A program made the translations under genes and the position numbers. DNA of 64,000 nucleotides from Schmidtea polychroa. Lineage: Eukaryota. Shown here one piece after another: positions 4,882 through 59,149 of the stretch. A model generated the notes under the pieces. The model made no database searches. It was not told the DNA's origin and saw nothing but the letters and a program-made list of their open reading frames with translations. The stretch lies in contig CM097885.1 in NCBI GenBank assembly GCA_044892525.1, forward strand, positions 194,246,001-194,310,000. The letters are read 5' to 3'. Numbering within the stretch: the stretch's first letter is position 1; each line of letters opens with the position of its first letter.

Positions 4882-5110
4882 TTGAAAATTTGACAAAAAA
4901 TGAAATTAATAAGGAAGTTATAATAATAGCTTTAACTTATGTTGTTTTAGAAATTGGAACGCATGCGTTTGCCAAGTCAGACAAGTTAGAAAATTTGATA
5001 GACATCGCTACCCGGCTAGTAAACTAATATCTAATGAACTGGGTAAAGGAAAAGGTAGTTGGAAAACACTGTGTTCATCTCTAACTGAAAAGAAAAATGA
5101 GAAGCAAGAA

Positions 5111-15600: not shown

Positions 15601-18600
15601 GTTATATCGTAATTTGATGAAATCAACAATTCGTTCATTGAATGTGTATTGATAACATCGAGATATAAAAGCGGTTCCTGGTTATCAATGTCACCACAAA
15701 CAGCGATTTTATTCAAGTTTTCGGAAATCAGATCATTTTTTGTTTCCTCGCTTCTTTTTGATGGATCATCGGCTACCTTAATAAACACTTCCTCAAGAGA
15801 TGTATCCGACAATCCATATGACAACGCATTAAAATTTACAAGTTCTCCATCAAGATCTGCAAATAGACTAGAGAATTTGCAACTATTGATATCATTTTGA
15901 GGTAAAACAACGCTCCATTGAGTCGTGGTTTCGTTTCTCATTTTCGCGTCTGAAATATGGGATTTGATAAAGTTCAGTATCTTCTCTCCGGAACTGGAAA
16001 TTCCTTTGCTGAAATCTTCTTTTTGAGCCTTTAAATTCTTCACAAGGGTCAAATAATATCCATCACCAAATTTCCGTTTTAAAAACACTGATGAACCGCA
16101 ACATTGGAGCTTTCCTTGGGAAATTATAGCAATCCTGTCACTGAGATAATCTGCTTCGTCCATTTGATGGGTTGTCAGGATTATCGTTCTCTCTTTGCTC
16201 CGATATTTGATCAATAGATCCCATATTCCCCTCCTAGCAAATGGATCAACTCCTGCAGTCGGTTCATCGAGAAATACAATATCGGGATTCCCTATAAAGG
16301 CTAACGCTAAAGAAAGTTTTCTTTTCATTCCACCGGAAAGTTTTTTCGAAAACGTATTTATTTTTGCTGTTAAACCGACATCTTCGATAATTATCGGTAT
16401 GAGTTTTTGTATTTCTTCTATTTTCATCCCTTTCAGGAACCCATAGAAATATATATGGTCCCCTACGGTCAAGTTGTCAAATAAGACATTATATTGGGGA
16501 CATAGTCCTATTTTCTTTCTAATACTCTCCATATTAGTCCTGATATCTTCGTTTAAAATAAAAGCCGTTCCGGATGTGGGAGAAAAGATTCCGGCCAATA
16601 TGGAAATCGTTGTCGTTTTCCCGGCTCCATTGTGACCGAGAAATGCCGTGATTTGTGACTGATAGAAATTCAAGTTCAAATCATCAACAGCTCTGGATTT
16701 AGCTCCCGGATATGTTTTCACTAGGTTTCTAATCGATATTCCTATTTGTAAATTTGTATATTCGTTTTCAAAATTACTCTCATTATCACAATCGATAATT
16801 AACAGTGCATTATTGTTAATTTCATGAGTAAGGCGGATATTTCCGTTGGGCCGCCAATAATGCCGGGTGAACAGAAAGTACCAGGGCTTACCGACTCCGT
16901 ATTGCCCCGGAAACACCGATTCCAGGTACCAGGCCGCTGACAAATATAATACGCTATCTACTATCAGCATCACCATGCAATGGCCGACCCCAAATTTCAA
17001 ATCAATAATTGCCCCGTCGAATAAATTCCCAAAATGGGCTCCCTCAGTCGACTGTTCCCAATAACCAATGAAATTAATCGCATTACAAAAAGCCACTTGC
17101 GCCGACAATCCTCCGAAATAATAGAATCCAACTGACAAATCGCTCTGCATCCGGATAAACACAACAAACGGCACATAGAGAACCACATAGATTACACTCC
17201 CGGTTACCGAGGCTATGTTGGCCTTATCGAAGAACAGACTGATCATAAACACCTGACAAATGAAAGAAACAACATAGAGAAGTAAAACGAGAAAAACGAC
17301 TCCTGGCGAAGAGAAGGACAGAATCGAAGAATATGTCAACAGCAATGTCATGATAGTAATCGGGAAAACCAATACGGTAATTGTCGATAGAAACCAACCA
17401 ATCCAATGGACGGAATTTCCTAACCCCATTACTCGCATGAATTCTTTCAGGCGTCTTTCTTTTTCATAGACAATGCTCTTCATCAGCTCGGTAAACGAGT
17501 GAAGCCAGGCGATCATCAGCATCAGTGGCATCATATTGGTGAGTAATCTGATAAACACGTCATCAACGTAACACGGGTACGGCATAATTTGCATGCTCGA
17601 GCCGACCTCAATTGATAGATTATTCGTAACAATCTCGATAAATGCCTGATCGATTGCCTCCTGCAATAACAAAAACCCGCTTGTGTAGTATTTAAAATCC
17701 TGTAAAGTGTTTCGACGGGGTTTAGCGGTCCAGAATTCATCGGTAACTTTAAAGTGTTTCGTAGAGTCGATTCGATTTGATGGGATTCGGATTTGATAGT
17801 TGAGAAAAGTTGCATTTGATGGTGTCAGGTAACGAAATGCATCATTTATGACGATAATGGCGAAAACGTTTTTCATTGGTTGTTTGACGAAATTCTCTAT
17901 AGCGATCGATTCATTTATTGGTACAAATTTATTCAATTCTGTACAATTTAATGCCTTTTCTAGTAACGAAAATATGGAGGAGATTTTATTTATAATAGAT
18001 TGAATATCTTGAAAATTCAATATAGTATTTATTTTTTCACAGAGATTTTGATCGAAATAAAAATACGAAGATTTGCAGGATTTTAGTTCATTAATTAATT
18101 CACTGTTATTTACAACTTTAATAATCCAATCCCTGAAATGCAATCGCCATTCAACAGATGCTAACCTGATGTAGTCTAAAGTTTCAAATGTTATGTTTGC
18201 TCTTCGCATAATTTCCCTGGTTAACGGAGAATTAGGAGAGAAATAAATTTTACCAAATACCCACGGAGAAATGGTCTTAATTATGATATTGGAATTCACA
18301 TTTCCAAAGAATTTTTCAAAGTTTGTCCCGCACGTTACGCTTGATTCATTCATAAATTGACCACTAACATTACTTTGGTTAGACATATTTTTTATCGATA
18401 TGAACAAAAACTTATAAAATTCTGTAAAATCATTCTCGTGTGATCCACAAAAAAAATTAAAAATTTGTGTTATAATTGGTTCAGACATTGTTAAATTTCC
18501 CATATTCGTTTCTTTAAAATTTGCTATCAATGGTGAAAGCAATTTACTAATAGGTATTGTATAGCTTATCAATTGATCAATTTCAAATTTATGAATAGTT

Positions 18601-18986
18601 GCCCATTTAATTAAGGAATTAACTGTTAACTTTTCTTTTGGTAAAGTTTGATAGACATTGTATAGGTTTTTCATAAACATTTCAAAAATATAAATATTAC
18701 TATAATTCTCATTCCAATTGATTTGGGTTTTATTGTAGCAGGTTGTATTAAATGTACAAAAGAAATCTAAAAGAAATGGTATAAACCCCATAGAAGCCAT
18801 ATTTTTTTCTTTAAATTCACAGTGATCAATTTTTAATTTAAAAATCGAATTACGCACTGGCACTATAATGACGATAATTAAAAGAGGTACCAAAATTTCT
18901 GAAATCAAAGTTATAGGTTTCCGTTTTTTCATTGTAAAGTTTTTCCAAAGCAACACTTTCAACTGCCTTATAAATATTGAATTCAT
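12618..18986 (-). CDS. ABCA1: Full-length ABCA subfamily lipid transporter (ABCA1/4/7-like), single exon, 2122 aa
   Basis: LLWKNFT N-terminus; MASMGFIPF..FFC....C exocytoplasmic motif; two TMDs; NBD1 GHNGAGKTTT/LSGGMKRKLS/LDEPTAGVDP; NBD2 GVNGAGKTTT/LSGGNKRKLS/LDEPTSGMD; exact orthology not determinable by eye. Confidence 0.95.
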   Translation of the reverse strand: MNSIFIRQLKVLLWKNFTMKKRKPITLISEILVPLLIIVIIVPVRNSIFKLKIDHCEFKEKNMASMGFIPFLLDFFCTFNTTCYNKTQINWNENYSNIYIFEMFMKNLYNVYQTLPKEKLTVNSLIKWATIHKFEIDQLISYTIPISKLLSPLIANFKETNMGNLTMSEPIITQIFNFFCGSHENDFTEFYKFLFISIKNMSNQSNVSGQFMNESSVTCGTNFEKFFGNVNSNIIIKTISPWVFGKIYFSPNSPLTREIMRRANITFETLDYIRLASVEWRLHFRDWIIKVVNNSELINELKSCKSSYFYFDQNLCEKINTILNFQDIQSIINKISSIFSLLEKALNCTELNKFVPINESIAIENFVKQPMKNVFAIIVINDAFRYLTPSNATFLNYQIRIPSNRIDSTKHFKVTDEFWTAKPRRNTLQDFKYYTSGFLLLQEAIDQAFIEIVTNNLSIEVGSSMQIMPYPCYVDDVFIRLLTNMMPLMLMIAWLHSFTELMKSIVYEKERRLKEFMRVMGLGNSVHWIGWFLSTITVLVFPITIMTLLLTYSSILSFSSPGVVFLVLLLYVVSFICQVFMISLFFDKANIASVTGSVIYVVLYVPFVVFIRMQSDLSVGFYYFGGLSAQVAFCNAINFIGYWEQSTEGAHFGNLFDGAIIDLKFGVGHCMVMLIVDSVLYLSAAWYLESVFPGQYGVGKPWYFLFTRHYWRPNGNIRLTHEINNNALLIIDCDNESNFENEYTNLQIGISIRNLVKTYPGAKSRAVDDLNLNFYQSQITAFLGHNGAGKTTTISILAGIFSPTSGTAFILNEDIRTNMESIRKKIGLCPQYNVLFDNLTVGDHIYFYGFLKGMKIEEIQKLIPIIIEDVGLTAKINTFSKKLSGGMKRKLSLALAFIGNPDIVFLDEPTAGVDPFARRGIWDLLIKYRSKERTIILTTHQMDEADYLSDRIAIISQGKLQCCGSSVFLKRKFGDGYYLTLVKNLKAQKEDFSKGISSSGEKILNFIKSHISDAKMRNETTTQWSVVLPQNDINSCKFSSLFADLDGELVNFNALSYGLSDTSLEEVFIKVADDPSKRSEETKNDLISENLNKIAVCGDIDNQEPLLYLDVINTHSMNELLISSNYDITNKLLSGFSLLKQQIIGLQIKRFHYMKRNKKGIFAELILPILMITLNIVLLKLAKPLESEPAMEISPWLMIPKARSINLNTFYRKENQINFLTNRLENEYEINNDEFRRKENQINLLMDQLEMEYRSDLGESGIRCMNPSIYRLANYRCFPENRNNKWTPIPNGNIPLITPGCDCNTTGYQICNDTLSGGPPNSYRIMTSSDKLNNLTGYNISDYLLKNFRKLSRKLYGGFQLLLPSTFGWSTKLIGDSPFWEELRKFVNVSQNNHSEADLKSLKFIDYLQKTFKLYGIKTTFTRIWTNSKGYVSMPAYANIFSNLLLRSRLNKSTAKTSDYGISVSNYPIITQSNVAVELTNQMLLEMSLAIFVILGLSFIPASFVIFLIEERVSGSKRQQFVSGVNPYVYWLSNFLWDMTKYIIPIIIIIIIFIAFDYQSYIGSKNAAAFILLLFFYGLAIIPLMYPFSFFISTPSTAFAIVYAYNLLVGTITTNSTFILDILQKKYKNLKEVNDILKNVFLIFPQFNLGRGMMDLFLNYFYNNNSMGRYEYNAFQWNIAGEKLFSLLMSSIGWWIVLIIIESGIINRILCGKMKNLYLERIEIRNTEDDDVNLERERMSSNNQSDDVLRVLNLTKIYNVYLKLKDKCGKKVNDNYIENKGREIAVNNLCFGVREGECFGLLGVNGAGKTTTFKMLTGEEEITYGNAFINGQSIISDMIGAHRNMGFCPQFDALHALLTCEEQLTFYCRIRGIESDKIKSVVNTSLKNLSLTPYANKMTQNLSGGNKRKLSTAIALIGNPKVIFLDEPTSGMDAESRRFLWNVIQKMTNEYKIAVILTSHNMEECEFLCNRVSIMVNGEMKCLGSVQHLKSKFGDDYYVKIRLYSNKCQLSDRLEVKSMIENSFQRGISLKDENFLTLLYRFELSFTKLSVIFNFFHKMKNDGLIIDFTVYQTSLDDIFIDLVKDKVFPTIPNGNAEIIVPALIENNIIGSFEESHCQETYA

Positions 18987-34700: not shown

Positions 34701-36623
34701 CAAGAAATGGGAATCCAAAACCACCAACATTTTCATTGGTCAATTCGTGGGTTAGGGAATCTTGGGATGATATGAAAATCGAAACTCTTAAAAATTCAAT
34801 AACAGCAGCAGGTTTTAGCGAAAATTATGAGGATTGGCATATTGCCAAACACGATGTATATGGAGTGGAGTTCTGTAAGGCGTGGATTTCTTCAAACACC
34901 GAATCCCGATTAAATAACGAGTCTATACTTGATGAAAATGATTATTATGAGGACGTTGAGTATTTGGATGATGATGATGAATAAATTTTTGATAATTATC
35001 TAAACTTATTTTTTATTAAAATGACCAAAGCAGTGAATAATATCACTATACTAACTCTAATATCTAATATATTTTTTTTTGATGATATTATTTTTATAGT
35101 ATCACTGATACTATTCGGTGATATCCGTTAGTTTCCCTCAATCTTTATTGGTTTTACTGTTTAACCTTGCACCTTATCCAGCAATTTCCAGCATGTCATT
35201 CATATTATGAAATAAATTTCCCTAATCACTTTGCTAACCACTGAATCGCACAGTGCGAGATTAGCAATTAATGCGCCGAATTCCATCGAATGAATTATAT
35301 AATCGATTATATAACAATAAATTACCGAGAAATCTATACCAAATGCGGATTTATTGATATGATAAGTTTTGTCCAACAGCGGCTCATTTGGCGGCGCGTC
35401 CTCCTCGAATGCTGAATAGGAATCTAGAATGCTTTGTCGGTGAGAGATCAACTCATGGAAATTACTCACTGGAATTCTCAATCGGTTTTAGTGACCATCG
35501 ATGTCTTGGTGGTACTGGTGGCGTTTGCATAACTATATCCGGTTCTATATTAATTATTATTGGCATTTCTATTGGATGACAATGAGTCTACCGAGTTTTG
35601 TGTCGATATTTCCGTCCGGATTATCCGATTGATGAGTCACTTCCATATTCGATGATTCGCCTTCAATTATCAATTTCTTCGGGCCCTCTGGTTTAGCAAT
35701 TACTGATAAGACGTTTTCATTGCTGTGGATGGCAGGTTTAAAAGGCACGGGGTATGTGATCTATTCCACGCATTAATTCATTACATTCACCACTTAAAAC
35801 TAGCTTTATCTCCTTCAGGAGGTTTACTGTCAAATGCTGTCATGCCTTCCGTTAATGATAGCGCATCACTCTTTAAGCTAGAATCCGATGGCAATCTTCT
35901 CAACAATTTCGAATGGCCGGACTTTTTTAAAGTGGAATTTTGTTTTTCATCTTTTTGAATTGAATTCACAAATTCAACTTCTTCAATCAATTGAAAATAA
36001 TTTATTAATTTATATGAAATTATTAACGAACCATTAAATGAAACTAAATTCATATAAGGAATTAACTCTGGTGGTAAAACTCTTGGGATTATTAAACCGT
36101 TTTTTTTCAAAACCACTAAATGCATTGCGACACAAAATTCTCCCAATTTTAAACACCCATCTTTATCTTGATCAGCCAATTCCCTGAAAATTTTAAGTAA
36201 CGATGATATCAATTAACTTATTTATTAATACAGTAAGTTTGTTAATTAAGTCAATATTTTTTAAATTATTTTTCAACAAACCATATATTTCTCAAATCTT
36301 CAATGCTAAGTTTAGATAATTCAAAAAATTCTTTTGCAACTGAACCAGGTAATTTATAACAATTTGGAGGAATAATTTTTTTGAATTGTTGAACATAATA
36401 ACACTTCTGCTCATTAGTCATCTGCCAATTAATACTCGCACTATCCATATCATAGTATTCTGTAATGTTTTCCTATGGAGATAAATTTTTGCTTTTAAAA
36501 TAGATTAAACAAAAAGTCAAACTTTGTATCTTTCATCTAAAAGTAATAAAATAAAAAAGTTACAATAAAATCTGTAATATTTAGTTTACCTTCTTGATTA
36601 GTAAATATAGTCCAATTATTCAT
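28730..36623 (-). CDS. REPS1: RalBP1-associated EH-domain protein (REPS1/2-like), multi-exon; central exons only partly resolved
   Basis: Predicted exons 36623-36590, 36459-36282, 36183-~35805, 35760 onward, 28997-28951, 28901-28730 with GT-AG introns of 130, 98 and 49 nt; EH domain [57 protein letters not shown] motif; C-terminal QRISLEIQLEKMMP matches the REPS coiled-coil end. Confidence 0.85.
29363..29847. repeat. Tandem array of four ~123-bp units
   Basis: TAAAGAGGCTTTTTGTTTG recurs at 29403, 29526, 29650, 29773. Confidence 0.9.
30300..30890 (-). pseudogene. IS630/Tc1-like transposase fragment (HTH through first catalytic Asp)
   Basis: SRKLKKQSWTRKRLSLIPIERN..LICLDETGF. Confidence 0.75.
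31252..33440 (+). pseudogene. hAT transposase (ZMYM1/PRKRIR-like), multiply frameshifted, inside a REPS intron
   Basis: YSVSLKGAVCTFCILF zinc finger; SIIGNESAD; GQGYDGCSTMAG; HCASHRLNLVI; LCKTRW; degenerate RSFSTLRRVKTWLRSTM. Confidence 0.85.
33654..34030. repeat. Compound tandem repeat: ~96-128-bp units containing variable numbers of an 18-bp subunit
   Basis: AAGGACATGTTCT at 33654, 33750, 33870; five consecutive TCTTTCAATATCCAAG(G/A) subunits from ~33886. Confidence 0.9.
34560..35125 (+). mobile_element. pogo-like non-autonomous relic (C-terminal DDE-region remnant)
   Basis: PKPPTFSLVNSWVRESWDDMKIETLKNSITAAGF; repeated TAGTATCA(C/T)T motifs at both ends, including the palindrome ATAGTATCA-C-TGATACTAT near 35096. 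Confidence 0.55.
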
Positions 36624-45620: not shown

Positions 45621-46673
45621 AAAGTACCTGTTGTTTTTTGAAAATAACAATGANNNNNNNNNNNNNNNNNNNNNNNNNNNNNNNNNNNNNNNNNNNNNNN
45701 NNNNNNNNNNNNNNNNNNNNNNNNNNNNNNNNNNNNNNNNNNNNNNNNNNNNNNNNNNNNNNNNNNNNNNNNNNNNNNNNNNNNNNNNNNAACACTCAAC
45801 TTACTGGTTCTTATATATGTACAAATATATCAAAAGACAAAGTGATTTATAAAACTTTTATTATAAAGAAAAATTTACCAATATGAATTTGTTGCTAGAT
45901 TACAAAAATCCAAAAATCCTTCAAATATCCAACCGAATATGCTTGTATGTACTGTGTGAATGTTATGTATTCTCTTGCTGTGTTGCGTGTAGGCTTTTGA
46001 ACGTTTCTGTTTGTCTGTTCGAGTTTTAGCACTAATAAGGATTAACCTTTTTAGTATGTTAACGCGGTTAAAATTTTGGGGCGAAAAAAATGAATTTTGA
46101 CTCGCTATTTATACTTTTTCTTTTAAGAGAAAATGATTAAGAATTTAATTAATATATTTTAAGTATTCTTAAGTATGCTTAAAAAATGAATTTAATATAT
46201 TTTAGCAGATGTTTTTCCTTAATACTCTAACAGATATTATTTAACCAGATGTTTTTTTTTTATAATTAATTTAGTACTCTAACAGATATTATTTAACCAG
46301 ATGTTTTTCTTACTCTATTATTTAATAATTACAATTATTTTTCCTTACAACTTGCGTGCATTATTTTAACAAAATTTAGATTTCTAATTATTTTATAGTA
46401 TTATTATTATTTCATTATATTATTTATCTCTACTTATAAAACTAATTATTAATGATTTAATTTACCCTTTTATAAAAATATTAAATGTATACGGAAAGAT
46501 ATATTAAATAAAAATTAACAGCTACTCAAAAAATATGTACAAACTTCTATAGAATAAAAATAATTAATATATACACCAATAATATCATAAAGAAATAAAA
46601 TAAGTAAAATAAAGAATAGTCCAAATGACACAGCATGAATAAAGTAAATAATGAATTTAGTTAACCATAATTG

Positions 46674-48209
46674 TCAATATTTTGAATTGTCCGGCTTTGG
46701 TTGTCTGGGTTCCACGTAGATATTGACTCTGAACTTGTTGCTGCCCGTTCTATAGTAGTGTGTTAGTTCAAACTCTTCAATTCTTCTTCCTCTGTCATCC
46801 AACACTCCTCCTAGGGCCGATAAAGTAATGTCCTCATTACCTTTATCGCTAAGGACCAATTCGATTCCGCAACCGTTTATATACATTGTTGCTCTTTGGA
46901 ATCCTTTCTTCAATGCCAATTTTAACACATCACCATCAATAATTCGTCTGCCGAAGTGTTGATGTATTTCTTTTTCCGAGATAGTGGATCTTCCCTCTTT
47001 GATGATGAACATTGGCTCCTCCAACTCGACATTTGGCTCTGGTCCTAGTTCGTCATCTATCTGCATTGCTTCGCTCGGTGAGAAATATTCTTCATCCGAG
47101 TCTAAATCACATTGTGGGTCAGCATAGTTGTAACTACTTGATGTCTGAGGTTCTTCCTTTATTTTGATTGCTTGTGGTTTTTTGTCCTCTTTGACGAATA
47201 TGATGTCATCATCGCTGTCCATTAGTTCATCTTCAAAGGTACGTCTGCTCCCATCTTTATTGAATTTCAATTCTCTTTGTGAGGGTTCGATATATATATC
47301 TTCCTCAAATTCCTCTGGCTCATCGCTGTTTTCTTCTATTGGACTGAGTTGATGGCCATTATTTTTCTTTTGGAATGCTGTCATGTCCCACCTTATGACT
47401 TCTTCCCACTGCTTTTCGACCAAGAGGTAAATGACTTTTGCGATTAGTGTTGTATCTTCTGCTGAGAACGGTTCGGGCTTTTTGAGGATGTTGTTGATTG
47501 CTTTGTCTTTCTTCCATTTTGGGTGTGTTGCGATTACTTTGTATGCGAGATTCGATAGTTTGATTCTGTGTGGTGCTACATTTTTGACGAATGAACACAT
47601 GAACACATCTTCAGCTAACTCTCTGACTCCCATGACATTGTACAGATCTAATGTCAGCGTCTTGAGTTTCTTTATTATTTCGTATCCCACAATGATTTTT
47701 CCGAGTAGCAGCTTCTGTATGTCGATCAGCGCTTGGTATTCGTCTTCATTTCCTCTTATTGAATCCCTGTCTGCTCTTGTCTTCTCCGGGTAATAATGTT
47801 GGATTTTGGTGCGTGGAGTCACCTTTTTATTGTATACGATTTCTCCTCTAAAATTTCTGATGCATATCTCTACTGGTCTGAGATTGTTATTGATGTCGCA
47901 TACTTCTTTGACATCGACGAACATGATTGCCCTTTGTCGTTCGGGGATTGACAACTGTTGATGTGTGAATGACATCCGTTTCGAGATGAAATCCTGATGT
48001 ATCACGATTTCCGACTGTATCATCTCTAATTCTCTGAAAGGATTGGGTATGGTTGGGACATATAGAATTTCGATAGCCATCACACAGGGTAAATTGTTCA
48101 TTTGGATGACCAAATTGTTGAAATCGTTTGGCACGCTTCGATTTGGTTCATCGTCTTGATCACCACCGTGCAGTTGCTTGTTGTTATAATAGGGATTCGT
48201 TGTTGGCAA
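46674..48209 (-). CDS. Retroelement accessory ORF, 511 aa from a TTG start (first in-frame ATG later): degenerate REX4/ISG20-like DEDDh fold, acidic linker, unknown C-terminal domain
   Basis: FVDVKEV..VEICIRNFRGEIVYNKKVTP..IQKLLLGKIIVGYEIIKKLKTL..VRELA..KLSNLAYKVI..FSAEDT..IYLLVEKQWE parallels REX4 motifs I-III. Confidence 0.7.
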   Translation of the reverse strand: MPTTNPYYNNKQLHGGDQDDEPNRSVPNDFNNLVIQMNNLPCVMAIEILYVPTIPNPFRELEMIQSEIVIHQDFISKRMSFTHQQLSIPERQRAIMFVDVKEVCDINNNLRPVEICIRNFRGEIVYNKKVTPRTKIQHYYPEKTRADRDSIRGNEDEYQALIDIQKLLLGKIIVGYEIIKKLKTLTLDLYNVMGVRELAEDVFMCSFVKNVAPHRIKLSNLAYKVIATHPKWKKDKAINNILKKPEPFSAEDTTLIAKVIYLLVEKQWEEVIRWDMTAFQKKNNGHQLSPIEENSDEPEEFEEDIYIEPSQRELKFNKDGSRRTFEDELMDSDDDIIFVKEDKKPQAIKIKEEPQTSSSYNYADPQCDLDSDEEYFSPSEAMQIDDELGPEPNVELEEPMFIIKEGRSTISEKEIHQHFGRRIIDGDVLKLALKKGFQRATMYINGCGIELVLSDKGNEDITLSALGGVLDDRGRRIEEFELTHYYRTGSNKFRVNIYVEPRQPKPDNSKY

Positions 48210-48223
48210 ATTGAGACCTCCGT

Positions 48224-48622
48224 TCAGGTCATATGGAATAGTATTCTATGTGGGACTTTTCTTCCTTCATTTGCTGCGATATCTGCATTTTTGAACATAT
48301 CATAGGTGCCTATTATATCTCTCAGCTTTATCCTTCGGGCTTCATTAAATTTAACTAAGTGCATTTCTCTTTCTTCGATTTCGCACTTCATTTCATTGGG
48401 TATGCAGACCTGGTTAGGGAAACTTCTGATGGTGATTGGTGAGCCGTCTGAGGTGATTTTATTTTGCAAATTTTTGTAGAAACTGTGGTATAGTTTTTGA
48501 ATGGAGCAGCTGTATTGTTGGACTGGACGTTGTATGGGATTGAATGGTTTGGGATTGACTCTGATATTGTTGGATTGCATTTTTCTAAAAAAACAATATA
48601 AACATACATATTTACAGCGCAT
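48224..48622 (-). CDS. Small unknown ORF (132 aa from ATG) between pol and the exonuclease-like ORF
   Basis: Open frame, present in both arms; no family recognised. Confidence 0.4.
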   Translation of the reverse strand: MRCKYVCLYCFFRKMQSNNIRVNPKPFNPIQRPVQQYSCSIQKLYHSFYKNLQNKITSDGSPITIRSFPNQVCIPNEMKCEIEEREMHLVKFNEARRIKLRDIIGTYDMFKNADIAANEGRKVPHRILFHMT

Positions 48623-48725
48623 TTGAGGCTTTACCTTATACGCTTCAATATAAATAAAAATATAAATATATGTGAGTTTAAATATTATCATTGACCAATA
48701 GGAATTGAAATTATCTATATTATTT

Positions 48726-49550
48726 TTAAACCAATGAGGACATTGTGTATTGTCCTGGCCTATACTTATCCAAATGAAAATGCCCTGGTACATTTTTGAC
48801 CAGTCGGTGCCGATACCGCTGCCTTTTCCATTTGTATTTTTTGTACACTTGAACACTGGTGATAATAGCTAAAAAACTCAATGCTAAAATGCTTGATGAG
48901 ATTACATAGAAAGGCCATCGTGGTTTAGCAGGTTTTACTTGAAATGCTCTGAGTTCATCCCAGTTATTTATGATTATGGGTTTTCCCGTAGGTAATTTTA
49001 TCAGTTTCCTATCAAACTGTCTTTGATTTTTTATTATTAATTTTTTATATACTTGTCTAGTTACTTTAAATGTCGTTTCTCTGTCTGTGTTTGTTATCGT
49101 TTGTAATGACTGTTGGGTGGATGCCGAATTTGTGGTAGTTATTGTTATGGTGGTTGTTGGCATGCTATTATCTATGGGCTTATATATGTTTGTGATAGTG
49201 GTTCTTATTCTTTTGCACCTTACTTGTGATGTGTCAACTAAGGTATTCCATTGTGCACAGAGTGTGTAATTAGTGTTAGGCTGTAGATTAATGAATTCAA
49301 CATTATCTCCTCTTTCAAATTCATTAGTTGATCTATTCTCAATATTTTTCATAAGCTTGGATGTATCGTCCCCAGTTTCTAGATATAAGTCTCTTATGGG
49401 TGATTTATTCAAGTTATATACTTTAATCTTATACGGTGAAATGTTGATTAAAATATCTTCCTCCATGTATTTTACTGAGTGTATGCTCTCATTTTCTACT
49501 TCAGTTGATTTACATAGCCCTATAATTGTTAAAAAGATCGCTGCCATCAT
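48726..49550 (-). CDS. Type I membrane protein module in frame with integrase: signal peptide, FN3-like domain, Thr-rich stalk, TM helix, basic tail (274 aa from ATG)
   Basis: MMAAIFLTIIGLCKS; NLQPNTNYTLCAQW..CKRIRT; PTTTITITTTNSAST; WPFYVISSSILALSFLAIITSVQVY then KKYKWKRQRYRHR. Confidence 0.7.
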   Translation of the reverse strand: MMAAIFLTIIGLCKSTEVENESIHSVKYMEEDILINISPYKIKVYNLNKSPIRDLYLETGDDTSKLMKNIENRSTNEFERGDNVEFINLQPNTNYTLCAQWNTLVDTSQVRCKRIRTTITNIYKPIDNSMPTTTITITTTNSASTQQSLQTITNTDRETTFKVTRQVYKKLIIKNQRQFDRKLIKLPTGKPIIINNWDELRAFQVKPAKPRWPFYVISSSILALSFLAIITSVQVYKKYKWKRQRYRHRLVKNVPGHFHLDKYRPGQYTMSSLV

Positions 49551-52500
49551 CAGTGCTTTTTGTGATCGTAATCCATATTTGTGAGGTGGTTTTTCTATTA
49601 ACTCTGTTTCTGCTAGTTTGCATCTATTAACTTGTACTATTATCGGATCCTCATTTTTATGTTTTTGTAAATGCAGGTTTTCATGTACTACTTTTACTAC
49701 TTCGTATGGTCCTTTAAATGGTCTTGCTAATTTAGTTGTTTTGCCTTTACCTACTTGTGGAGACATAAGTCTAACCTTATCTCCCACTTTAAAATTATGA
49801 GGTTTACTATTTTTATCGTAATCTGCCTTATATTGTTCTTGTCTAAATCTAACTTTTAAGTTTGCAACTTTATATACCTCTTGTAATCTCTCTTGCATTA
49901 ATGTTACATAATCTGGCGCATCTAAATATTGTGATACTCGAGGTTCAAAAATTGTATCAATCGGTGTCGCAGGCTCTCTTAAGAACATTAGAAAATATGG
50001 TGAATATCCCGTTGTCTCATTTGGTGTGATATTATGGATGTATGTGCATTGATTAACGTATTCATCCCAATCATTTTGGTTTCTTCCCACAAACACAGCT
50101 AATCTACTTAGCAATGTCCCATTGAATCTCTCTACTAAACCATCGGTCTGAGGGTGGTATGCTGTTGTGTTGATTTTATGCATGTTAAATATGTTAGCTA
50201 CTCTTTTTATAGTTTCACTCATGAAATTTTTCCCTTTATCTGTTAATAGTTTTCTCGGTGTACCGATTTTAAAGATTATTTTTTCTAAAAGTAATTTAGC
50301 TACGGTTTCTGCTGTTTCATCTTTAGTAGGAAATGCCTCTGCCCATTTTGTAAAATAATCGCTAAAAACTAGTATGTGTTTATTCCCGTTAATTGTTGTG
50401 GGTAGTTTACACAAAAAATCCATTGCGCACAGTTCCATTGGTGATGTTGTAGCTGGGATTGGATGTAAAGGTGCTTTAGTTTTTGTTCCTGTATTTTTTC
50501 TAGTTGCGCATATTGTGCATGCATTACACCATCTCTTGACATCCTTTTTCAAATCGTCCCAATAATATTTTTGCATCAATCTGCTTGCTGTTTTCCTACT
50601 TGATAAATGACCTCCTAGAGCACCATCGTGATATTGTAATAGAAGAATTTGTCTTAATCTTTGTGGTACTACTATTAATTGTTTACCGCTAAAATCCTCA
50701 ATAACAATTAACTTCTTACAGATTTTATACTTTTGGTTAGTTCCCTTTTTTATTTCTTCTCTTATCTTGAAGAGTTCTGGATCTTTCATTTGTTCCTCAT
50801 ATATTTCTATTGGTTTTTCAGTTACTAATGCAAAAACTTCTAGTGCTCCTAACTCTGGAATTCGTGATAATGCATCTGCATTCCTGTTTATTCTACCTGG
50901 TTTGTATGCAATCTTTATGTGCATGTCTTGTATTTTCATTGCCCATTTTAACAGTCTACTGGATGTATCTTTATGTTTCCATAACCCTTCTAATGGCTTA
51001 TGGTCTGTTCTAATTACTACTTCAGTTCCATATATGTATGGTTTAAATTGTTTTAATGCAAAAACTATAGCATAACATTCTTTCTCAATTGTTGAGTACC
51101 TAATCTGTGCTCCTTTTAATGTTTTGCTTGCATAAGCTATTACATAATCTTTACCCTTTTCCTCTTCTTGTCCTAAGACTGCCCATACGGCCTTCCCGCT
51201 GGCGTCTGTCATGACAATGAACTATTTTTTAAAGTCTGGGTATCTTAATATCGGTGCTGTTATTAATTTTTCTTTTAGTTGATCAAAAGCTTTTTGGTGT
51301 TCATCTTTCCATTTCTTTTGTGGCTTGTTAATTTTATCGTTAATCTCTTGTACTATTAACACTCCTTTACTCTCTCCCTTTGTTTTGACTCCTTTTGTTA
51401 ACTCAATTAGTGGTGCTGCTATTTTTGCATAATCTTGTATGAATTTACGATAATATCCTGTGAGACCTAAAAATCCCTGTACTTGTTGTAATGTTTTTGG
51501 AACTGGGAATTTTTTAACTACTTCAATTTTATCGGGATTAGGTATTATACCATCTACTGTAACTATATGTCCTAAGAATAATGCTGAAGGTTCTGCCCAT
51601 TTACACTTAGGGGGTTTTATTTTGATTTTTGCTTTTCTTAATCTTTCTAGTACGTTAGCTATATCTTTTAGATGTTCCTCAAATGTTTTTGATGAAATTA
51701 ATATATCATCTATATATACTGCGCAACGTTGTACGTCTACTAATACTGTATTCATTAAACGTTGAAATGTTGCTGGCGCATTAGTTAACCCAAAAGGTAA
51801 TCTTGTATATTCATATAAACCGTCTTCTATCACAAAAGCTGTCTTTTCCGCATCCCCCTCTTACATTTGAATTTGCATGTAGCCTTTATTTGCATCTATT
51901 ACTGTGAAATATTTAGTATCTCTAAGTTTATCATATTGTTCTTGTGCTTTTGGGAATGGGTATGAGTCTTTTACTGTTACATCATTTAATTTACGATAAT
52001 CAATGCACATTCGAATTTCCCCGTCTTTCTTTCTAACTGGTACGATAGGTGATGCCCATTGTGAAAAACTTTGTTTTATTACGCCTGCCTCTTTTAATTC
52101 TTTAATTTGTCGTTTTATTTCCTCCCTCAGTTTATATGGTACACTATAGGGTCTCTGTTTTATTGGTCTAGCATTCCCTGTATCGATTACATGTTTGATA
52201 ATGTCAGTATCTCCTAAATCAAATTCGTGTTTTGCAAAAACATCACTGTATTCGTCAAGTAATATTTGTAGTTGTAGTTGTTGTGTTTCATTTAGATAAT
52301 TATTATTTATTTTAATTTTATCATAAAATTCGATATTATTCGCTCTACTCTGTTCGACCATTCTTTCACTGACATCCTTCGTCATCGACATCTCACATAC
52401 TTCAAATGTTTGCTCTAATTCACCTTTGAACAACTTTCCCAATTTTGTACCTTTATGAATTTTTACTTTATTTCTTTCGTAATTCGCGATTCTTATTGGA

Positions 52501-53183
52501 ATTATCCCATTATTTGGAATTACACACTCGTCTGTTAACATTACATTATGATTTCGTGATATTGCCGTTTCAGGCTCAAAAATGAAAGTGTCCTCACTTT
52601 TAACATTAACTTTTACTGGAATTATATGATCACTTTGATACTCTAGTTCAAATGTCTCTAATGCAATTACCTCAGTAAATCTTGCGTCTTGATATATTGC
52701 CTTCCGTTTGACTGTACTATCCGTTAAATCGATTACACAGTTTTTTAACTTTTTGAGTATGTCCATCCCAAGGACACATACGCATTTACATTCTGCTACT
52801 ACCTTGAAGACATGTTCAACCACTTGATCCGAAAAGTGGACTGTTAATTCGATATCTCCTTTTAATGGTATGTAATGTGACGATAATGAAATTACTCTAT
52901 CTCTTGTGCTCACGATATTTTTCTTTTGGTTTCCGGTTAACTGATCTTCACGAATCATAGAAGCTGCTGCTCCTGTGTCACATAATGCCTTTATTATCGT
53001 ATCATTTATCACTATTTGTAATTTAGGCCTTGCTTCATTTAACCCTTCTAATATATCGTCAAGTTCTAACCCGTAACATCCATAAGTTTTTCTTGAAACA
53101 CAATGACAATTACCATTTTCACCTGGGATTCTAATTTCAATATTATTTCTCAATTCTGTCAATTGTTCTCTTTGATTATCATA
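48726..53183 (-). pseudogene. pol: Ty3/gypsy pol (PR-RT-RNaseH-IN) continuing into an FN3-like/TM extension; one reading frame broken only by two in-frame stops
   Basis: PR ALCDTGAAAS; RT WASPIVPVRKKDG, LPFGLTNAPATFQR, YIDD; RH TDAS, EKECYAIV, TDHKPL; IN HHCC zinc finger, MDF..SDYFTK..TDKG..PQTDGLVERFN, GPY; stops TAA 51861-51863 and TAG 51222-51224 with no frameshift. Confidence 0.95.
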
Positions 53184-54992
53184 TTACCCAACATGTGGTT
53201 GCTCAATATTTTCTGATCTGTTTGTGTCGTCCTCTTTCTCATTGGTGATCATTATTTCACCCTCTTCCCTTCGACTTTTCATCCGTTTGATTTCCTTATC
53301 GTGCCTCGCAGTGATCAAATATTTGGCTATGAATGGACATAAACATGCTATCATTTTATATGAATTACCAAAAACTTGTCTCAGTTGTCTTAACGAAACT
53401 AATGATGAGCAAATCATTTTCAATAGTGCTACTGTATAATATATACCCAATATAGTGGAAAACGTATTTCCGAGAATCGCAAAATATCCCCATATGCTGT
53501 ATAATACTCTATACACAACTTTCTTGAAGTGCTCTTTTGATAATAATACATCAAAGTTGTAATTTCCTCCATAACTATTTTCGATGATTTTGTTTACCAT
53601 GATAGAAAGAACTTTTTCTTTTTCATGAGGAAATAACATATGTTTTCTGGCGCTCTCTATCGCCTCTCTCGTATACATCCCATTGTTATCCATTTCGTTG
53701 ACTTCCTGAAATTCTAACTTTTTCTCAAGTTCAGTTAGTTCTAGTTTTTGTGGTTTAGTCGCTTCTTTTCTATCTGACATTGTAATCCACATATCATCAT
53801 TTATTTTGTATAATGGATCTAATAGATTAGTACATTTATCAATTTTTCTCGGAACATAGTCTTTATCTGTTAATATCCTTGTTATTGGTTGGAGGTATAC
53901 AGTTTCTCCTTTATACACTACTGGCAATTCGTTTGTGCACTTATTATTCGTTGCTAACGATACGCTAACCGGTTTACATTGAAATGTTTGTATCACTTCA
54001 CCGACAACTCTTGCAAATGTCCCTTTTTCTGCAAATAAAATTGGTGCCATTAAATCTGGGTTTGTGACTGCAACCGCCATCTTTGCCCTTAATATTTCTC
54101 TATTAAGTTTACAATCGTTTGCGATAGTTGCTTGGTACACCTTGTCCAATTGTACTAACTGATGATGATAGAAATAGTCAATTTTATTATTAAAATATGA
54201 TGCTAGCTTGACGTCGAATTTATCTATTCTCGATTTTGCCTCTTTAATTTCACTTCCGCTGATATAAATTCCCTCATAATTTGTTTGTACGACTGCCTTG
54301 CCACATTTTATGCTTTCACCTTTTCCTACAAATCTCATCGCCTCTGTTTCAGAATCTGACATGTATATTGTTGGGGTATCTCTCTCTTGAATTATCGTTG
54401 CTCGTCGTTTTTGGTCTTTGATGTTCTTGGATTCTACATCCGTAAACTGTTTACCTCCTATCGTTCTGAATTTCAGTGTCTTTAATTTAGTTAGATGACA
54501 TTCGTATTTATTCACTCTGTATATGATCATTGACTCGCCTGTATCACAGCTTGTCTCATCTAATGTGCAGAACTTATGTGTCATCATTTTCTTTGATGCA
54601 CTATCAAATGACGCTTTGAATTTCCTTAATTCAATATAATACTGCCGTCTCACTACAATATTGTCTGCCACATGCCCCCATATTTTATACTTTCCTCCTT
54701 CACAATATCCTCCTGTTGATGACCATCCCACGACATTTACTAATTGTCTTACTCGTGCTCCTACCTGAGCATCTAACTCAAATCCATCCGGCGTTTTTAT
54801 CTTTTTTGTTTTAAATGCATTTTCGCATTCAACTGGCGTTATTATTATTGCTTCTGGTGCCCATGTTGGGGTTAATATTGTTCTTGCCACCTTGTTACAC
54901 ACAAAACTTTCCTCTGAATATTTGACTATACATTCTCCTGCTTCTGTGTGAATGAAATCAGATTCCTGATATATATGGAAAATCTTGGGGTC
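53184..54992 (-). CDS. env: Chuvirus/gB-type (class III) envelope glycoprotein, N-terminally truncated at the inversion junction
   Basis: Cys-rich ectodomain with CEGGKY, CTLDETSCDTG, CKLNREIL, CTNELPVVYKGETVYLQPITRIL; C-terminal hydrophobic segment IWGYFAILGNTFSTILGIYYTVALL; frame open from 54992. Confidence 0.8.
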   Translation of the reverse strand, partial: DPKIFHIYQESDFIHTEAGECIVKYSEESFVCNKVARTILTPTWAPEAIIITPVECENAFKTKKIKTPDGFELDAQVGARVRQLVNVVGWSSTGGYCEGGKYKIWGHVADNIVVRRQYYIELRKFKASFDSASKKMMTHKFCTLDETSCDTGESMIIYRVNKYECHLTKLKTLKFRTIGGKQFTDVESKNIKDQKRRATIIQERDTPTIYMSDSETEAMRFVGKGESIKCGKAVVQTNYEGIYISGSEIKEAKSRIDKFDVKLASYFNNKIDYFYHHQLVQLDKVYQATIANDCKLNREILRAKMAVAVTNPDLMAPILFAEKGTFARVVGEVIQTFQCKPVSVSLATNNKCTNELPVVYKGETVYLQPITRILTDKDYVPRKIDKCTNLLDPLYKINDDMWITMSDRKEATKPQKLELTELEKKLEFQEVNEMDNNGMYTREAIESARKHMLFPHEKEKVLSIMVNKIIENSYGGNYNFDVLLSKEHFKKVVYRVLYSIWGYFAILGNTFSTILGIYYTVALLKMICSSLVSLRQLRQVFGNSYKMIACLCPFIAKYLITARHDKEIKRMKSRREEGEIMITNEKEDDTNRSENIEQPHVG

Positions 54993-55350
54993 TTAATAAT
55001 CATAAATAACTGGGATGAACTCAGAGCATTTCAAGTAAAACCTGCTAAACCACGATGGCCTTTCTATGTAATCTCATCAAGCATTTTAGCATTGAGTTTT
55101 TTAGCTATTATCACCAGTGTTCAAGTGTATAAAAAATACAAATGGAAAAGGCAGCGGTATCGGCACCGACTGGTCAAAAATGTACCAGGGCATTTTCATT
55201 TGGATAAGTATAGGCCAGGACAATACACAATGTCCTCATTGGTTTAAAAATAATATAGATAATTTCAATTCCTATTGGTCAATGATAATATTTAAACTCA
55301 CATATATTTATATTTTTATTTATATTGAAGCGTATAAGGTAAAGCCTCAA

Positions 55351-55749
55351 ATGCGCTGTAAATATGTATGTTTATATTGTTTTTTTAGAAAAATGCAATC
55401 CAACAATACCAGAGTCAATCCCAAACCATTCAATCCCATACAACGTCCAGTCCAACAATACAGCTGCTCCATTCAAAAACTATACCACAGTTTCTACAAA
55501 AATTTGCAAAATAAAATCACCTCAGACGGCTCACCAATCACCATCAGAAGTTTCCCTAACCAGGTCTGCATACCCAATGAAATGAAGTGCGAAATCGAAG
55601 AAAGAGAAATGCACTTAGTTAAATTTAATGAAGCCCGAAGGATAAAGCTGAGAGATATAATAGGCACCTATGATATGTTCAAAAATGCAGATATCGCAGC
55701 AAATGAAGGAAGAAAAGTCCCACATAGAATACTATTCCATATGACCTGA
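55351..55749 (+). CDS. Second copy of the 132-aa small ORF
   Basis: One amino-acid difference seen (NNTRV versus NNIRV). Confidence 0.4.
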   Translation: MRCKYVCLYCFFRKMQSNNTRVNPKPFNPIQRPVQQYSCSIQKLYHSFYKNLQNKITSDGSPITIRSFPNQVCIPNEMKCEIEEREMHLVKFNEARRIKLRDIIGTYDMFKNADIAANEGRKVPHRILFHMT

Positions 55750-55763
55750 ACGGAGGTCTCAAT

Positions 55764-57299
55764 TTGCCAACAACGAATCCCTATTATAACAACAAGCAAC
55801 TGCACGGTGGTGATCAAGACGATGAACCAAATCGAAGCGTGCCAAACGATTTCAACAATTTGGTCATCCAAATGAACAATTTACCCTGTGTGATGGCTAT
55901 CGAAATTCTATATGTCCCAACCATACCCAATCCTTTCAGAGAATTAGAGATGATACAGTCGGAAATCGTGATACATCAGGATTTCATCTCGAAACGGATG
56001 TCATTCACACATCAACAGTTGTCAATCCCCGAACGACAAAGGGCAATCATGTTCGTCGATGTCAAAGAAGTATGCGACATCAATAACAATCTCAGACCAG
56101 TAGAGATATGCATCAGAAATTTTAGAGGAGAAATCGTATACAATAAAAAGGTGACTCCACGCACCAAAATCCAACATTATTACCCGGAGAAGACAAGAGC
56201 AGACAGGGATTCAATAAGAGGAAATGAAGACGAATACCAAGCGCTGATCGACATACAGAAGCTGCTACTCGGAAAAATCATTGTGGGATACGAAATAATA
56301 AAGAAACTCAAGACGCTGACATTAGATCTGTACAATGTCATGGGAGTCAGAGAGTTAGCTGAAGATGTGTTCATGTGTTCATTCGTCAAAAATGTAGCAC
56401 CACACAGAATCAAACTATCGAATCTCGCATACAAAGTAATCGCAACACACCCAAAATGGAAGAAAGACAAAGCAATCAACAACATCCTCAAAAAGCCCGA
56501 ACCGTTCTCAGCAGAAGATACAACACTAATCGCAAAAGTCATTTACCTCTTGGTCGAAAAGCAGTGGGAAGAAGTCATAAGGTGGGACATGACAGCATTC
56601 CAAAAGAAAAATAATGGCCATCAACTCAGTCCAATAGAAGAAAACAGCGATGAGCCAGAGGAATTTGAGGAAGATATATATATCGAACCCTCACAAAGAG
56701 AATTGAAATTCAATAAAGATGGGAGCAGACGTACCTTTGAAGATGAACTAATGGACAGCGATGATGACATCATATTCGTCAAAGAGGACAAAAAACCACA
56801 AGCAATCAAAATAAAGGAAGAACCTCAGACATCAAGTAGTTACAACTATGCTGACCCACAATGTGATTTAGACTCGGATGAAGAATATTTCTCACCGAGC
56901 GAAGCAATGCAGATAGATGACGAACTAGGACCAGAGCCAAATGTCGAGTTGGAGGAGCCAATGTTCATCATCAAAGAGGGAAGATCCACTATCTCGGAAA
57001 AAGAAATACATCAACACTTCGGCAGACGAATTATTGATGGTGATGTGTTAAAATTGGCATTGAAGAAAGGATTCCAAAGAGCAACAATGTATATAAACGG
57101 TTGCGGAATCGAATTGGTCCTTAGCGATAAAGGTAATGAGGACATTACTTTATCGGCCCTAGGAGGAGTGTTGGATGACAGAGGAAGAAGAATTGAAGAG
57201 TTTGAACTAACACACTACTATAGAACGGGCAGCAACAAGTTCAGAGTCAATATCTACGTGGAACCCAGACAACCAAAGCCGGACAATTCAAGATATTGA
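55764..57299 (+). CDS. Second copy of the 511-aa exonuclease-like accessory ORF
   Basis: Same translation as 46674-48209 except terminal SRY versus SKY. Confidence 0.7.
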   Translation: MPTTNPYYNNKQLHGGDQDDEPNRSVPNDFNNLVIQMNNLPCVMAIEILYVPTIPNPFRELEMIQSEIVIHQDFISKRMSFTHQQLSIPERQRAIMFVDVKEVCDINNNLRPVEICIRNFRGEIVYNKKVTPRTKIQHYYPEKTRADRDSIRGNEDEYQALIDIQKLLLGKIIVGYEIIKKLKTLTLDLYNVMGVRELAEDVFMCSFVKNVAPHRIKLSNLAYKVIATHPKWKKDKAINNILKKPEPFSAEDTTLIAKVIYLLVEKQWEEVIRWDMTAFQKKNNGHQLSPIEENSDEPEEFEEDIYIEPSQRELKFNKDGSRRTFEDELMDSDDDIIFVKEDKKPQAIKIKEEPQTSSSYNYADPQCDLDSDEEYFSPSEAMQIDDELGPEPNVELEEPMFIIKEGRSTISEKEIHQHFGRRIIDGDVLKLALKKGFQRATMYINGCGIELVLSDKGNEDITLSALGGVLDDRGRRIEEFELTHYYRTGSNKFRVNIYVEPRQPKPDNSRY

Positions 57300-59149
57300 C
57301 AATTATGGTTAACTAAATTCATTATTTACTTTATTCATGCTGTGTCATTTGGACTATTCTTTATTTTACTTATTTTATTTCTTTATGATATTATTGGTGT
57401 ATATATTAATTATTTTTATTCTATAGAAGTTTGTACATATTTTTTGAGTAGCTGTTAATTTTTATTTAATATATCTTTCCGTATACATTTAATATTTTTA
57501 TAAAAGGGTAAATTAAATCATTAATAATTAGTTTTATAAGTAGAGATAAATAATATAATGAAATAATAATAATACTATAAAATAATTAGAAATCTAAATT
57601 TTGTTAAAATAATGCACGCAAGTTGTAAGGAAAAATAATTGTAATTATTAAATAATAGAGTAAGAAAAACATCTGGTTAAATAATATCTGTTAGAGTACT
57701 AAATTAATTATAAAAAAAACATCTGGTTAAATAATATCTGTTAGAGTATTAAGGAAAAACATCTGCTAAAATATATTAAATTCATTTTTTAAGCATACTT
57801 AAGAATACTTAAAATATATTAATTAAATTCTTAATCATTTTCTCTTAAAAGAAAAAGTATAAATAGCGAGTCAAAATTCATTTTTTTCGCCCCAAAATTT
57901 TAACCGCGTTAACATACTAAAAAGGTTAATCCTTATTAGTGCTAAAACTCGAACAGACAAACAGAAACGTTCAAAAGCCTACACGCAACACAGCAAGAGA
58001 ATACATAACATTCACACAGTACATACAAGCATATTCGGTTGGATATTTGAAGGATTTTTGGATTTTTGTAATCTAGCAACAAATTCATATTGGTAAATTT
58101 TTCTTTATAATAAAAGTTTTATAAATCACTTTGTCTTTTGATATATTTGTACATATATAAGAACCAGTAAGTTGAGTGTTNNNNNNNNNNNNNNNNNNNN
58201 NNNNNNNNNNNNNNNNNNNNNNNNNNNNNNNNNNNNNNNNNNNNNNNNNNNNNNNNNNNNNNNNNNNNNNNNNNNNNNNNNNNNNNNNNNNNNNNNNNNN
58301 NNNNNNNNNNNNNNNNNNNNNNNNNNNNNNNNNTCCAATCAGGATTAAGTGGTGTTGTATTTTGTCTCCTTTTTCATTTTATTTAGTTTTTCTATTGTTA
58401 TTTTCTTAATTGTAATGATTTTCTGCTTTATTTACTTTCTTTTATTTTTTCAAAAACGTTTTTATTTTAATGCTGATGGATGCTCTATTTTTTGTGTCTT
58501 TTCTTATTTTTATTGATTATTAGTTTTCCATTTATTTATTTCTTTTTTTAATTATTATTTCTAACTTTTCCATCATCTGATCACTCTTCAATGTTACAAT
58601 CCTTACTTATGAAAATAGGAAATCTTATTCTCAAAGAAGGAGTGAAAATAAGGGAAAATTACCATTTTCGAATCAATATATATAATTTGTGAATTTTCAT
58701 AAGCGTGTTTCTGTTAGCCCAACTACAGCTTTCCTGGGGAAAATTTGCATGGGCCCCTTAAAATACTTGTTGACTCCACACACAAAAAACTATTTCTATT
58801 TATCAAATTGTAAAAGTGAATTTCAAGCGCATGTTTAACAAATGAGCTATTTTGCCAAACAAAATTTATTAAAAACTAAATAAAGCAGAAATGTTAAAAA
58901 TTTATAATAATTTAAAATCAGAAAAAATGCAAAACAATATTTTACATTATTTTAAAATGAGAGGAGGAACATCAAATGTATATAAAACTAATGATTAATA
59001 TCAAAGTCAAAATTATTTTGCTATTTATTAAATTTCTATTTGTTTAATTAATTCTTAATCAATTTTAAAACGTCGCAAATTTTGAAACTTTTCTTATATT
59101 ATTATTTATAATAAAATTAAAATATTGTTTAATAAATATTTAAAATAAA

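Follow-up and report, generated by a model that had tools for sequence, protein, structure and literature searches.

A selected REX4-type pseudo-nuclease carried by an envelope-bearing Ty3/gypsy element of Schmidtea polychroa

Why should a retrotransposon carry, and keep, a nuclease-like protein that has lost its catalytic residues? The question was raised by a stretch of 64,000 nucleotides of the Schmidtea polychroa genome, hereafter the window (GenBank assembly GCA_044892525.1, contig CM097885.1, positions 194,246,001 to 194,310,000; coordinates below are window positions). A first, sequence-only reading had placed a retroelement-borne REX4/ISG20-like pseudo-exonuclease at 46674 to 48209. 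That frame is real and reaches 48245, but it is merely the 3' part of a longer, frameshifted open reading frame (ORF). The interval 46674-48245(-) is the 3' part of ORF2, the accessory ORF of an envelope-bearing Ty3/gypsy long terminal repeat (LTR) element of 13.4 kb, and the ORF2 protein is almost certainly an element-borne, selected pseudo-nuclease of the REX4 type. Its parts in the window, all on the minus strand, are the following (dN/dS, ratio of nonsynonymous to synonymous substitution; rmsd, root-mean-square deviation).

46674 to 48245, minus strand: stop-free frame of 523 codons from the ORF scan, the 3' part of ORF2, downstream of the frameshift
48146 to 48580, minus strand: 5' part of ORF2 in another frame, with the likely start codon at 48580 and the frameshift near 48,145
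48072 to 48508, minus strand: predicted N-terminal double-stranded beta-helix domain, split here by the frameshift (Z 11.3, rmsd 3.5, 153 residues aligned to 2jij)
47397 to 48071, minus strand: connector and REX4/ISG20-type DEDDh pseudo-nuclease, with the first catalytic Asp (D1) at 47915, lysines at 47909 and 47669, and motif III from 47471
47040 to 47396, minus strand: acidic linker with 35 Asp or Glu in 119 residues
46704 to 47039, minus strand: C-terminal domain of about 110 residues, conserved (dN/dS 0.08), passing through the polypurine tract into the LTR

The linker and the C-terminal domain had been recognized in the sequence-only reading and are both present, while the beta-helix domain had been missed. 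Neither the C-terminal nor the N-terminal domain gave a usable match in the Protein Atlas. Natural ORF2 copies run 626 codons from the ATG equivalent to 48580. ORF2 was free of indels in 19 of 30 close copies, and the other 11 had an indel or were partial; the frameshift near 48,145 was found in two of the 30, which are the two arms of an inverted duplication in the window itself. The window copy is broken and probably makes no whole protein, and unbroken ORF2 copies are present elsewhere in the genome.

The identity of the nuclease domain was established from its relatives. A search of 1.84 billion representatives yielded 63 relatives, and PF00929 (RNase_T) was matched at E<=0.01 by 29 of 54 proteins scanned (51 relatives and 3 own ORFs). 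The 54-row family profile matched ISG20L2 (E 6.5e-32), ISG20 (E 1.1e-20) and SDN1 (E 1.4e-17), and a sister-family ORF of the same genome matched ISG20L2 by itself at E 3.4e-11. An alignment-based structure model of residues 20-405 of a natural ORF2 copy had a predicted local distance difference test score (pLDDT) of 91.4 and a predicted template modelling score (pTM) of 0.89. Its residues 199-377 matched ISG20 with Z 18.4 (rmsd 2.7, 162 aligned) and ISG20L2 with Z 18.2, followed by Pan2 (Z 14.8) and SDN1 (Z 14.6); Exuperantia, an inactive DEDD protein, was also among the fold matches. Profile and structure comparison thus gave a significant DEDDh match and bore out the likeness that had been drawn by eye, and the motifs DVK, GYEIIKK, PFSAED and YLLVEKQWE were all found in that order in the 523-codon frame. 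The window protein alone matched no Pfam family at E<=1, with ISG20 (E 0.35) and ISG20L2 (E 0.85) ranking under chance matches, and showed no BLASTP similarity to the REX4 record P0095. Its phycobilisome-linker matches were taken as chance.

Compared with the intact relatives, in which the five catalytic sites form the set D-E-D-H-D, the sites of ORF2 read D, K, K, F and T, so that the set is lost, four of its five residues being absent in most lineages; with the register shifted by one residue, the last two read P and D. D1 and both lysines were kept in all six lineages compared (A, g78, g55, B, P0001 and P0002), with synonymous codon changes at each Lys, and D1 is the sole acid of the five sites kept in all six. 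The motif-III Asp position reads D, D, D, Q, E and S in these lineages, and because of this variation the residue is not considered held. The loss of the catalytic set proposed earlier was therefore upheld, with Lys at two acid positions in 6/6 lineages, and of the two positions thought to be retained the motif-I Asp stood (6/6) while the motif-III Asp, register-dependent and D in 3/6, did not. D, K and K together with PFSAEDT were present in 27 of the 29 close copies that could be parsed (of 30). The nuclease domain is net basic, with 35 K/R against 30 D/E, compared with 28 against 31 in the intact domain of family C.

For the N-terminus of ORF2, a double-stranded beta-helix resembling the 2-oxoglutarate (2OG)-Fe(II) dioxygenases is predicted. 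Model residues 1-161 were closest to prolyl-4-hydroxylase (2jij, values above), followed by Ofd2 (Z 9.8), ALKBH6 (9.6) and ALKBH5 (9.1), with ALKBH7 within 9.1-9.8; the Z values of several 2OG branches lie within about 2 of each other. A plain cupin match was less full (Z 8.9, 98 aligned), the domain having been modelled within residues 20-405. No Pfam or sequence match to this domain was obtained in the 54-protein scan or with the family profile. The domain is common to the family, with a conserved Tyr, an IPN motif, a His (47/51 rows) and a Glu (41/51). An HxD/E...H iron triad was absent from the columns conserved at >=45% in the 51 rows, which hold one conserved His, no conserved acid two residues on and no second His.

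Substitution rates were determined pairwise by the Nei-Gojobori method on single copies. Between B and B70, dN/dS was 0.035 for the nuclease domain, 0.052 for the beta-helix, 0.081 for the C-terminal domain and 0.20 for the linker. In the nuclease domain of A, g78, B and g55, synonymous sites were saturated (proportion of synonymous differences, pS, 0.76-0.90) with nonsynonymous differences (pN) at 0.13-0.26. The comparison of family copies called for by the sequence-only reading thus revealed strong purifying selection (0.035 for the nuclease domain), which indicates that the protein is kept for a function. The DNA of subfamilies A and B was 93-99% identical over element positions 1001-9500, from the leader through integrase, fell from 87 to 80% at the start of the pol tail, and was 62-70% across ORF2 and the greater part of the LTR, a difference of about 35% for ORF2 and U3 together. 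That a near-identical backbone bears a 3' block so old and diverged points to recombination, and the comparison shows that the block of ORF2 and U3, the unique 3' region of the LTR, has been exchanged between subfamilies. ORF2 was always accompanied by its own variant of U3 and the repeat region R, on a shared gag-env-pol. The pol tail (48726-49616(-)) was exchanged along with ORF2.

Where the protein came from was approached through its intact relatives. All five sites were kept in 36 of 53 complete rows (of 66), D or E being accepted at the third site. In the window's own genome, gypsy families C and D carry gag-env-pol (reverse transcriptase 55-57% identical) followed by a two-domain ORF with the five sites; family C reads D, E, E, H, D in 27/29 parsed copies and has at least 150 genome matches. 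Intact families C, D, E and F share this genome with an intact host REX4, a gene of its own that is split by introns. An intact paralog is absent from the window's element. Among 21 metagenome loci, full pol lay upstream in two (L103 and L104), and behind it both have two paralogs in tandem, one dead and one intact; L105 overlaps L104 and was not counted as an independent tandem contig. Of the remaining loci, four resemble cellular REX4, one is preceded by a protease, and most of the rest were too short to judge.

A careful tree was built from 95 of 103 rows and 193 columns, 8 rows having been dropped as shorter than 135 residues; its cellular sample comprised 25 rows, without vertebrate ISG20, AEN or REXO1. 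It separated 70 element-type rows (45 intact, 18 dead and 7 unscored) from the 25 cellular-type rows with branch support 100/100. The window family formed a group of six rows at 99/93, within a part that also holds intact rows, and was not nested among the cellular REX4 orthologs (25 rows sampled). Since 45 of the 70 branch rows keep the five sites, capture would be old and inactivation later, inside elements. All dead element-type rows fell together in a quick tree, this grouping stayed open in the careful one, and an approximately unbiased (AU) test did not reject a single origin of the dead forms (p 0.48, for a group named after the first tree). The tree thus places ORF2 as an old retroelement-borne lineage. 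The earlier idea of a captured host nuclease, taken as a recent capture from this host, did not fit the separate branch with its 45 intact rows.

No relative was found in viral contigs with P0018 or alignment A3 as query, and no match in metagenome contigs with P0018 as query. The candidate L079 was rejected as a REX4 relative, being what we take from its motifs to be an ERI1-like host gene. Some further observations were made among the relatives. In L103:1-6660 and L104:3-7106, the integrase is followed, still in the pol frame, by another aspartyl protease and by ankyrin repeats, and L104 has a further short ORF behind the two nuclease-like paralogs. The relative P0037, whose sites are dead, is 870 residues long and has a RING finger at its C-terminus; its contig measures 16 kb. 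Three cellular-looking REX4-like proteins (L106, L107 and P0062) have D-x-K in motif I, possibly by independent loss of the same acid. A diverged dead-site copy at L125-L126 (g55), without an adjacent pol, a C-terminal domain match or an early ATG, may be a fragment or belong to another context.

That ORF2 belongs to the element was determined by searching the genome in which it lies (781 Mb in four large contigs), the nuclease-like domain serving as query. Among the best 150 of 1096 candidates, about 40 were at >=93% identity, about 12 at 74-79% and about 95 at 55-70%, as read from the table. A full-length element was present in 5 of 6 neighbourhoods fetched, and ORF2 lay between pol and the 3' LTR in 5/5, measuring 722 or 777 codons from stop to stop. 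With at least 150 genome matches and this constant position after pol, carriage by the element was confirmed and a flanking host gene was not. Gag-env-pol forms one frame, seen as a single frame of 3053-3056 codons from gag and env through protease, reverse transcriptase, RNase H and integrase in two of the five full-length copies, and the LTRs of full-length copies measure 1.07-1.11 kb and are 99.7-100% identical. The protease, reverse transcriptase, RNase H, integrase order of Ty3/gypsy elements was found in the window element and in the full-length copies. TG...CA LTR ends, a TGG-led primer site and 4-bp target duplications were identified in two full-length copies elsewhere in the genome; the outer ends of the window copy, at the target-duplication positions, read N. 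The envelope is a class III fusion glycoprotein matching PF24664 (E 2.3e-82), and the GAG-ENV-POL order is that of gB-type errantiviruses. The window copy is 5'-truncated, begins inside env and has three in-frame stops in the polyprotein. Its other parts are as follows.

48726 to 53183, minus strand: pol (protease, reverse transcriptase, RNase H, integrase) and a membrane-protein-like tail, with in-frame stops near 51863 and 51224
53184 to 54992, minus strand: class III (Monjiviricetes/gB-type) fusion glycoprotein, 5'-truncated, matching PF24664 as above, with a stop near 53186
45791 to 46804, minus strand: visible part of the 3' LTR, its middle being a U3 variant unlike the subfamily-A copy compared
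46805 to 46812, minus strand: polypurine tract inside ORF2, read directly from the sequence
54996 to 58180, plus strand: inverted second copy of the 3.2 kb at the element's 3' end, which includes another ORF2 frame, 55728-57299(+)

Aligned over about 3,187 nt, the two arms of the inverted duplication show 3 substitutions and 2 gap columns (99.8% alike), and they have the frameshift in common. At 45791-58180 two 3' ends of the element therefore face outward, one of the 5'-truncated body and one of the inverted duplicate; the duplication may have arisen by a template switch at insertion, by later rearrangement or by an assembly error. A second locus resembling another inverted duplicate proved to be two different elements, and recurrence of the inversion had no support at this one other locus. 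Behind the integrase, the pol tail opens with hydrophobic residues and goes on through a domain, a stalk rich in Thr and a membrane segment to a basic end; the whole looks like a second membrane protein in the polyprotein. A Pfam scan gave no match for the tail domain, in which we presume a fibronectin-III-like motif.

Elsewhere in the window, 254-7154 holds an internally deleted family-C element (gag, partial env and LTR pieces, without pol or nuclease domain) and remnants of another. An ABCA-type transporter frame at 12618-18986(-) runs 2122 codons without interruption, which is unusual for an intron-rich animal genome. A piece near 19545 resembles the start of a B-type LTR and is perhaps a solo LTR. 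By eye, we take 35787-36212(-) to be a host exon of an EH-domain-like protein and the stretch from about 59150 onward(+) to be host exons of a carbohydrate-kinase-like gene.

How ORF2 might be expressed is suggested by the sequence just upstream of it.

48585 to 48644, minus strand: hairpin conserved in non-coding sequence (48614-48644), and a splice-acceptor-like site of the pyrimidine-AG type, from subfamily comparison

The hairpin (L044, L115, L127 and L111) was kept in three subfamilies (z -2.8, -2.7 and -1.8), with two-sided change at 1 of 19 pairs, and is conserved though its flanking sequence is saturated between subfamilies. The pyrimidine-AG site stands in equal phase in A, B, g78 and g55. 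ORF2 would be made from a subgenomic RNA through this acceptor-like site. A putative donor-like word, GTAAGT, is present at 45795-45810(-), in a short LTR end common to subfamilies A and B. Four contig runs were compared with the 10 kb that lie between the end of the 5' LTR and the start of ORF2, and none of the nine joints listed reached the acceptor-like site. Run X1, RNA by guess, covered 30/30 bins of the 10-kb stretch before ORF2, which says nothing on splicing or expression; likewise, that none of the listed sequence holders of ORF2 is on record as RNA says nothing on expression.

What, then, might a selected nuclease fold without its catalytic set do? The reading we tentatively prefer, at somewhat less than an even chance, is that the ORF2 protein binds RNA without cutting it and so shields the RNA of the element, or blocks host factors acting on RNA ends. 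Long ago, a 3'-5' exoribonuclease of the REX4 kind would have been captured by an ancestral element and joined to the beta-helix domain, and many descendant proteins would still cut RNA. In the window lineage, two metal-binding acids would have become lysines, which would stand in for the positive charge of the metal, and the pocket with these lysines would bind the 3' end of an RNA with no metal present and leave it uncut. Translated from a subgenomic RNA of its own, made by way of the acceptor-like site upstream of ORF2, the protein would cap the ends of element RNA or occupy the sites of host trimming, decay or small-RNA factors. In a wider form, which as a whole seems rather unlikely to us, an undescribed large branch of envelope-bearing gypsy elements would carry a two-domain countermeasure against RNA surveillance with cutting and dead paralogs, which at times adjoin on a single element; the dead form would shield element RNA from host trimming and small-RNA silencing, and old, strongly diverged versions would be retained and swapped along with the LTR promoter as an exchangeable counter-defence cassette. 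Several results weigh against the shield. Conservation points to a function without telling which, and the purifying selection seen, with no positive selection, counts against an arms race. The charge difference between dead and intact nuclease domains is small. The structure model leans on an alignment dominated by intact relatives, its pocket shape is predicted, and the single-sequence model was unusable (pLDDT 37.5). The genomic context is known for few of the 70 element-type rows, and the linkage of ORF2 to its own U3 together with the acidic linker fits a transcriptional activator equally.

Foamy-virus Tas is a model for such an activator. ORF2 could likewise activate its own LTR or an internal promoter, with the dead folds as a docking module and the linker as the activation region. 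The constant company of ORF2 and its U3/R variant on a shared gag-env-pol, the conserved short motifs in the acidic linker, and CCAAT- and TATA-like words noticed by eye upstream of ORF2 in families A and C would suit this role. We nevertheless judge it unlikely: ORF2 reads through the polypurine tract into U3, so that physical linkage alone explains their joint inheritance, the C-terminal tail is not conserved across the wider family, and no DNA-binding fold was found in ORF2. The tandem dead and intact paralogs on L103 and L104, and the coexistence of intact families C to F and host REX4 in one genome, would agree with a dead form that binds an active paralog, or host nucleases of the REX4 type, and serves as their partner or inhibitor through protein contact; as the window's element has no intact paralog, we hold this distinctly improbable. 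An enzyme with an altered active site, whether this lies in the nuclease fold or in the beta-helix domain, where a His and a Glu are conserved, is more doubtful still. D1 is invariant in the family, but lysines occupy two acid positions, the two-metal set is lost, and the beta-helix domain has no HxD...H triad. Decaying neutral cargo might be read from the frameshifted window copy and the 11 imperfect close copies. This explanation and that of a flanking host gene are refuted, to the point of a very small residual probability, by dN/dS of 0.035 and by the position between pol and a 3' LTR in full-length copies with nearly identical LTRs; the host REX4 gene, moreover, is separate and split by introns.

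Fold (PDB 1wlj and 7yw5; PF00929), motif order and the closing Y...W helix are common to ORF2 and REX4/ISG20/ISG20L2, unlike which ORF2 has no catalytic set, is fused to a beta-helix, is borne by an element and belongs to a branch separate from the 25 cellular-type rows. The statement in the sequence-only reading that no such cargo was known in a gypsy element was too strong, as the gypsy-like Juno and Vesta LTR retrotransposons and the Terminons of bdelloid rotifers have a DEDDy exonuclease ORF3 with intact residues (PMC5408684). As to its function, the authors raise RNA-end processing and silencing (PMC5408684). Rotifer ORF3 and ORF2 are alike in being a DEDD nuclease as an extra ORF after pol in gypsy-like elements. 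By description, ORF3 is RNase D-like, DEDDy and intact, in elements mostly without env (PMC5408684), whereas ORF2 is REX4-like DEDDh with His, has two domains and dead and intact forms, and resides in elements with env. The intact ORF2 relatives have the DEDDh His and match PF00929/ISG20, and are thus not DEDDy. Maelstrom and EXD1 are inactive DEDD folds that keep RNA binding (PMC5408684); with Exuperantia, they offer a model for RNA binding without the DEDD set, by analogy only, as they belong to other DEDD subfamilies. A viral DEDDh domain is used against host defence in the arenavirus NP exonuclease (PMC7968707), again an analogy only, and its ECHC zinc motif was not noticed in ORF2.

Planarian Burro elements have env in frame between gag and pol (PMC6431247), the position it has in the window's element. 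GAG-ENV-POL errantiviruses with an HSV/gB-type envelope occur in flatworms, nematodes and bryozoans (PMC13524379) and have the gene order and the class III fusion protein in common with it. The window's element departs from these elements in measuring 13.4 kb with 1.1-kb LTRs, not 30 kb (PMC13524379, PMC6431247). The main text of PMC13524379 has 0 occurrences of 'exonuclease' or 'DEDD'. An orchid Ty3/gypsy element carries a recently captured AlkB-domain ORF with demethylase activity (PMC9289625), which is similar in bringing a 2OG-dioxygenase-type fold as gypsy cargo; ORF2 resembles it in fold alone, having no Pfam or sequence match, no triad and a fused nuclease. Nuclease cargo after pol in gypsy elements is therefore already known from the rotifer DEDDy proteins. 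No REX4/ISG20-type or two-domain ORF in gypsy elements was met in the literature searched, which covered few subscription papers or Repbase entries and no supplements; what was not found in print is the fusion of a REX4-type DEDDh domain with a beta-helix, dead and intact forms side by side, and the exchange of the block with U3.

This family provides a natural comparison: a single enzyme occurs both intact and dead, within one genome and on one element, and selection acts on either version. To our knowledge, a fold or a role is known for few of the accessory proteins that invertebrate LTR elements encode, and silencing suppressors encoded by animal retroelements are rare. Hundreds of recent copies are present in a planarian, in which knock-down and small-RNA work are routine. 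With this family it would become possible to test whether captured RNA-decay enzymes serve retroelements against surveillance by the host, and by what path an enzyme may become a pseudo-enzyme on a selfish element.
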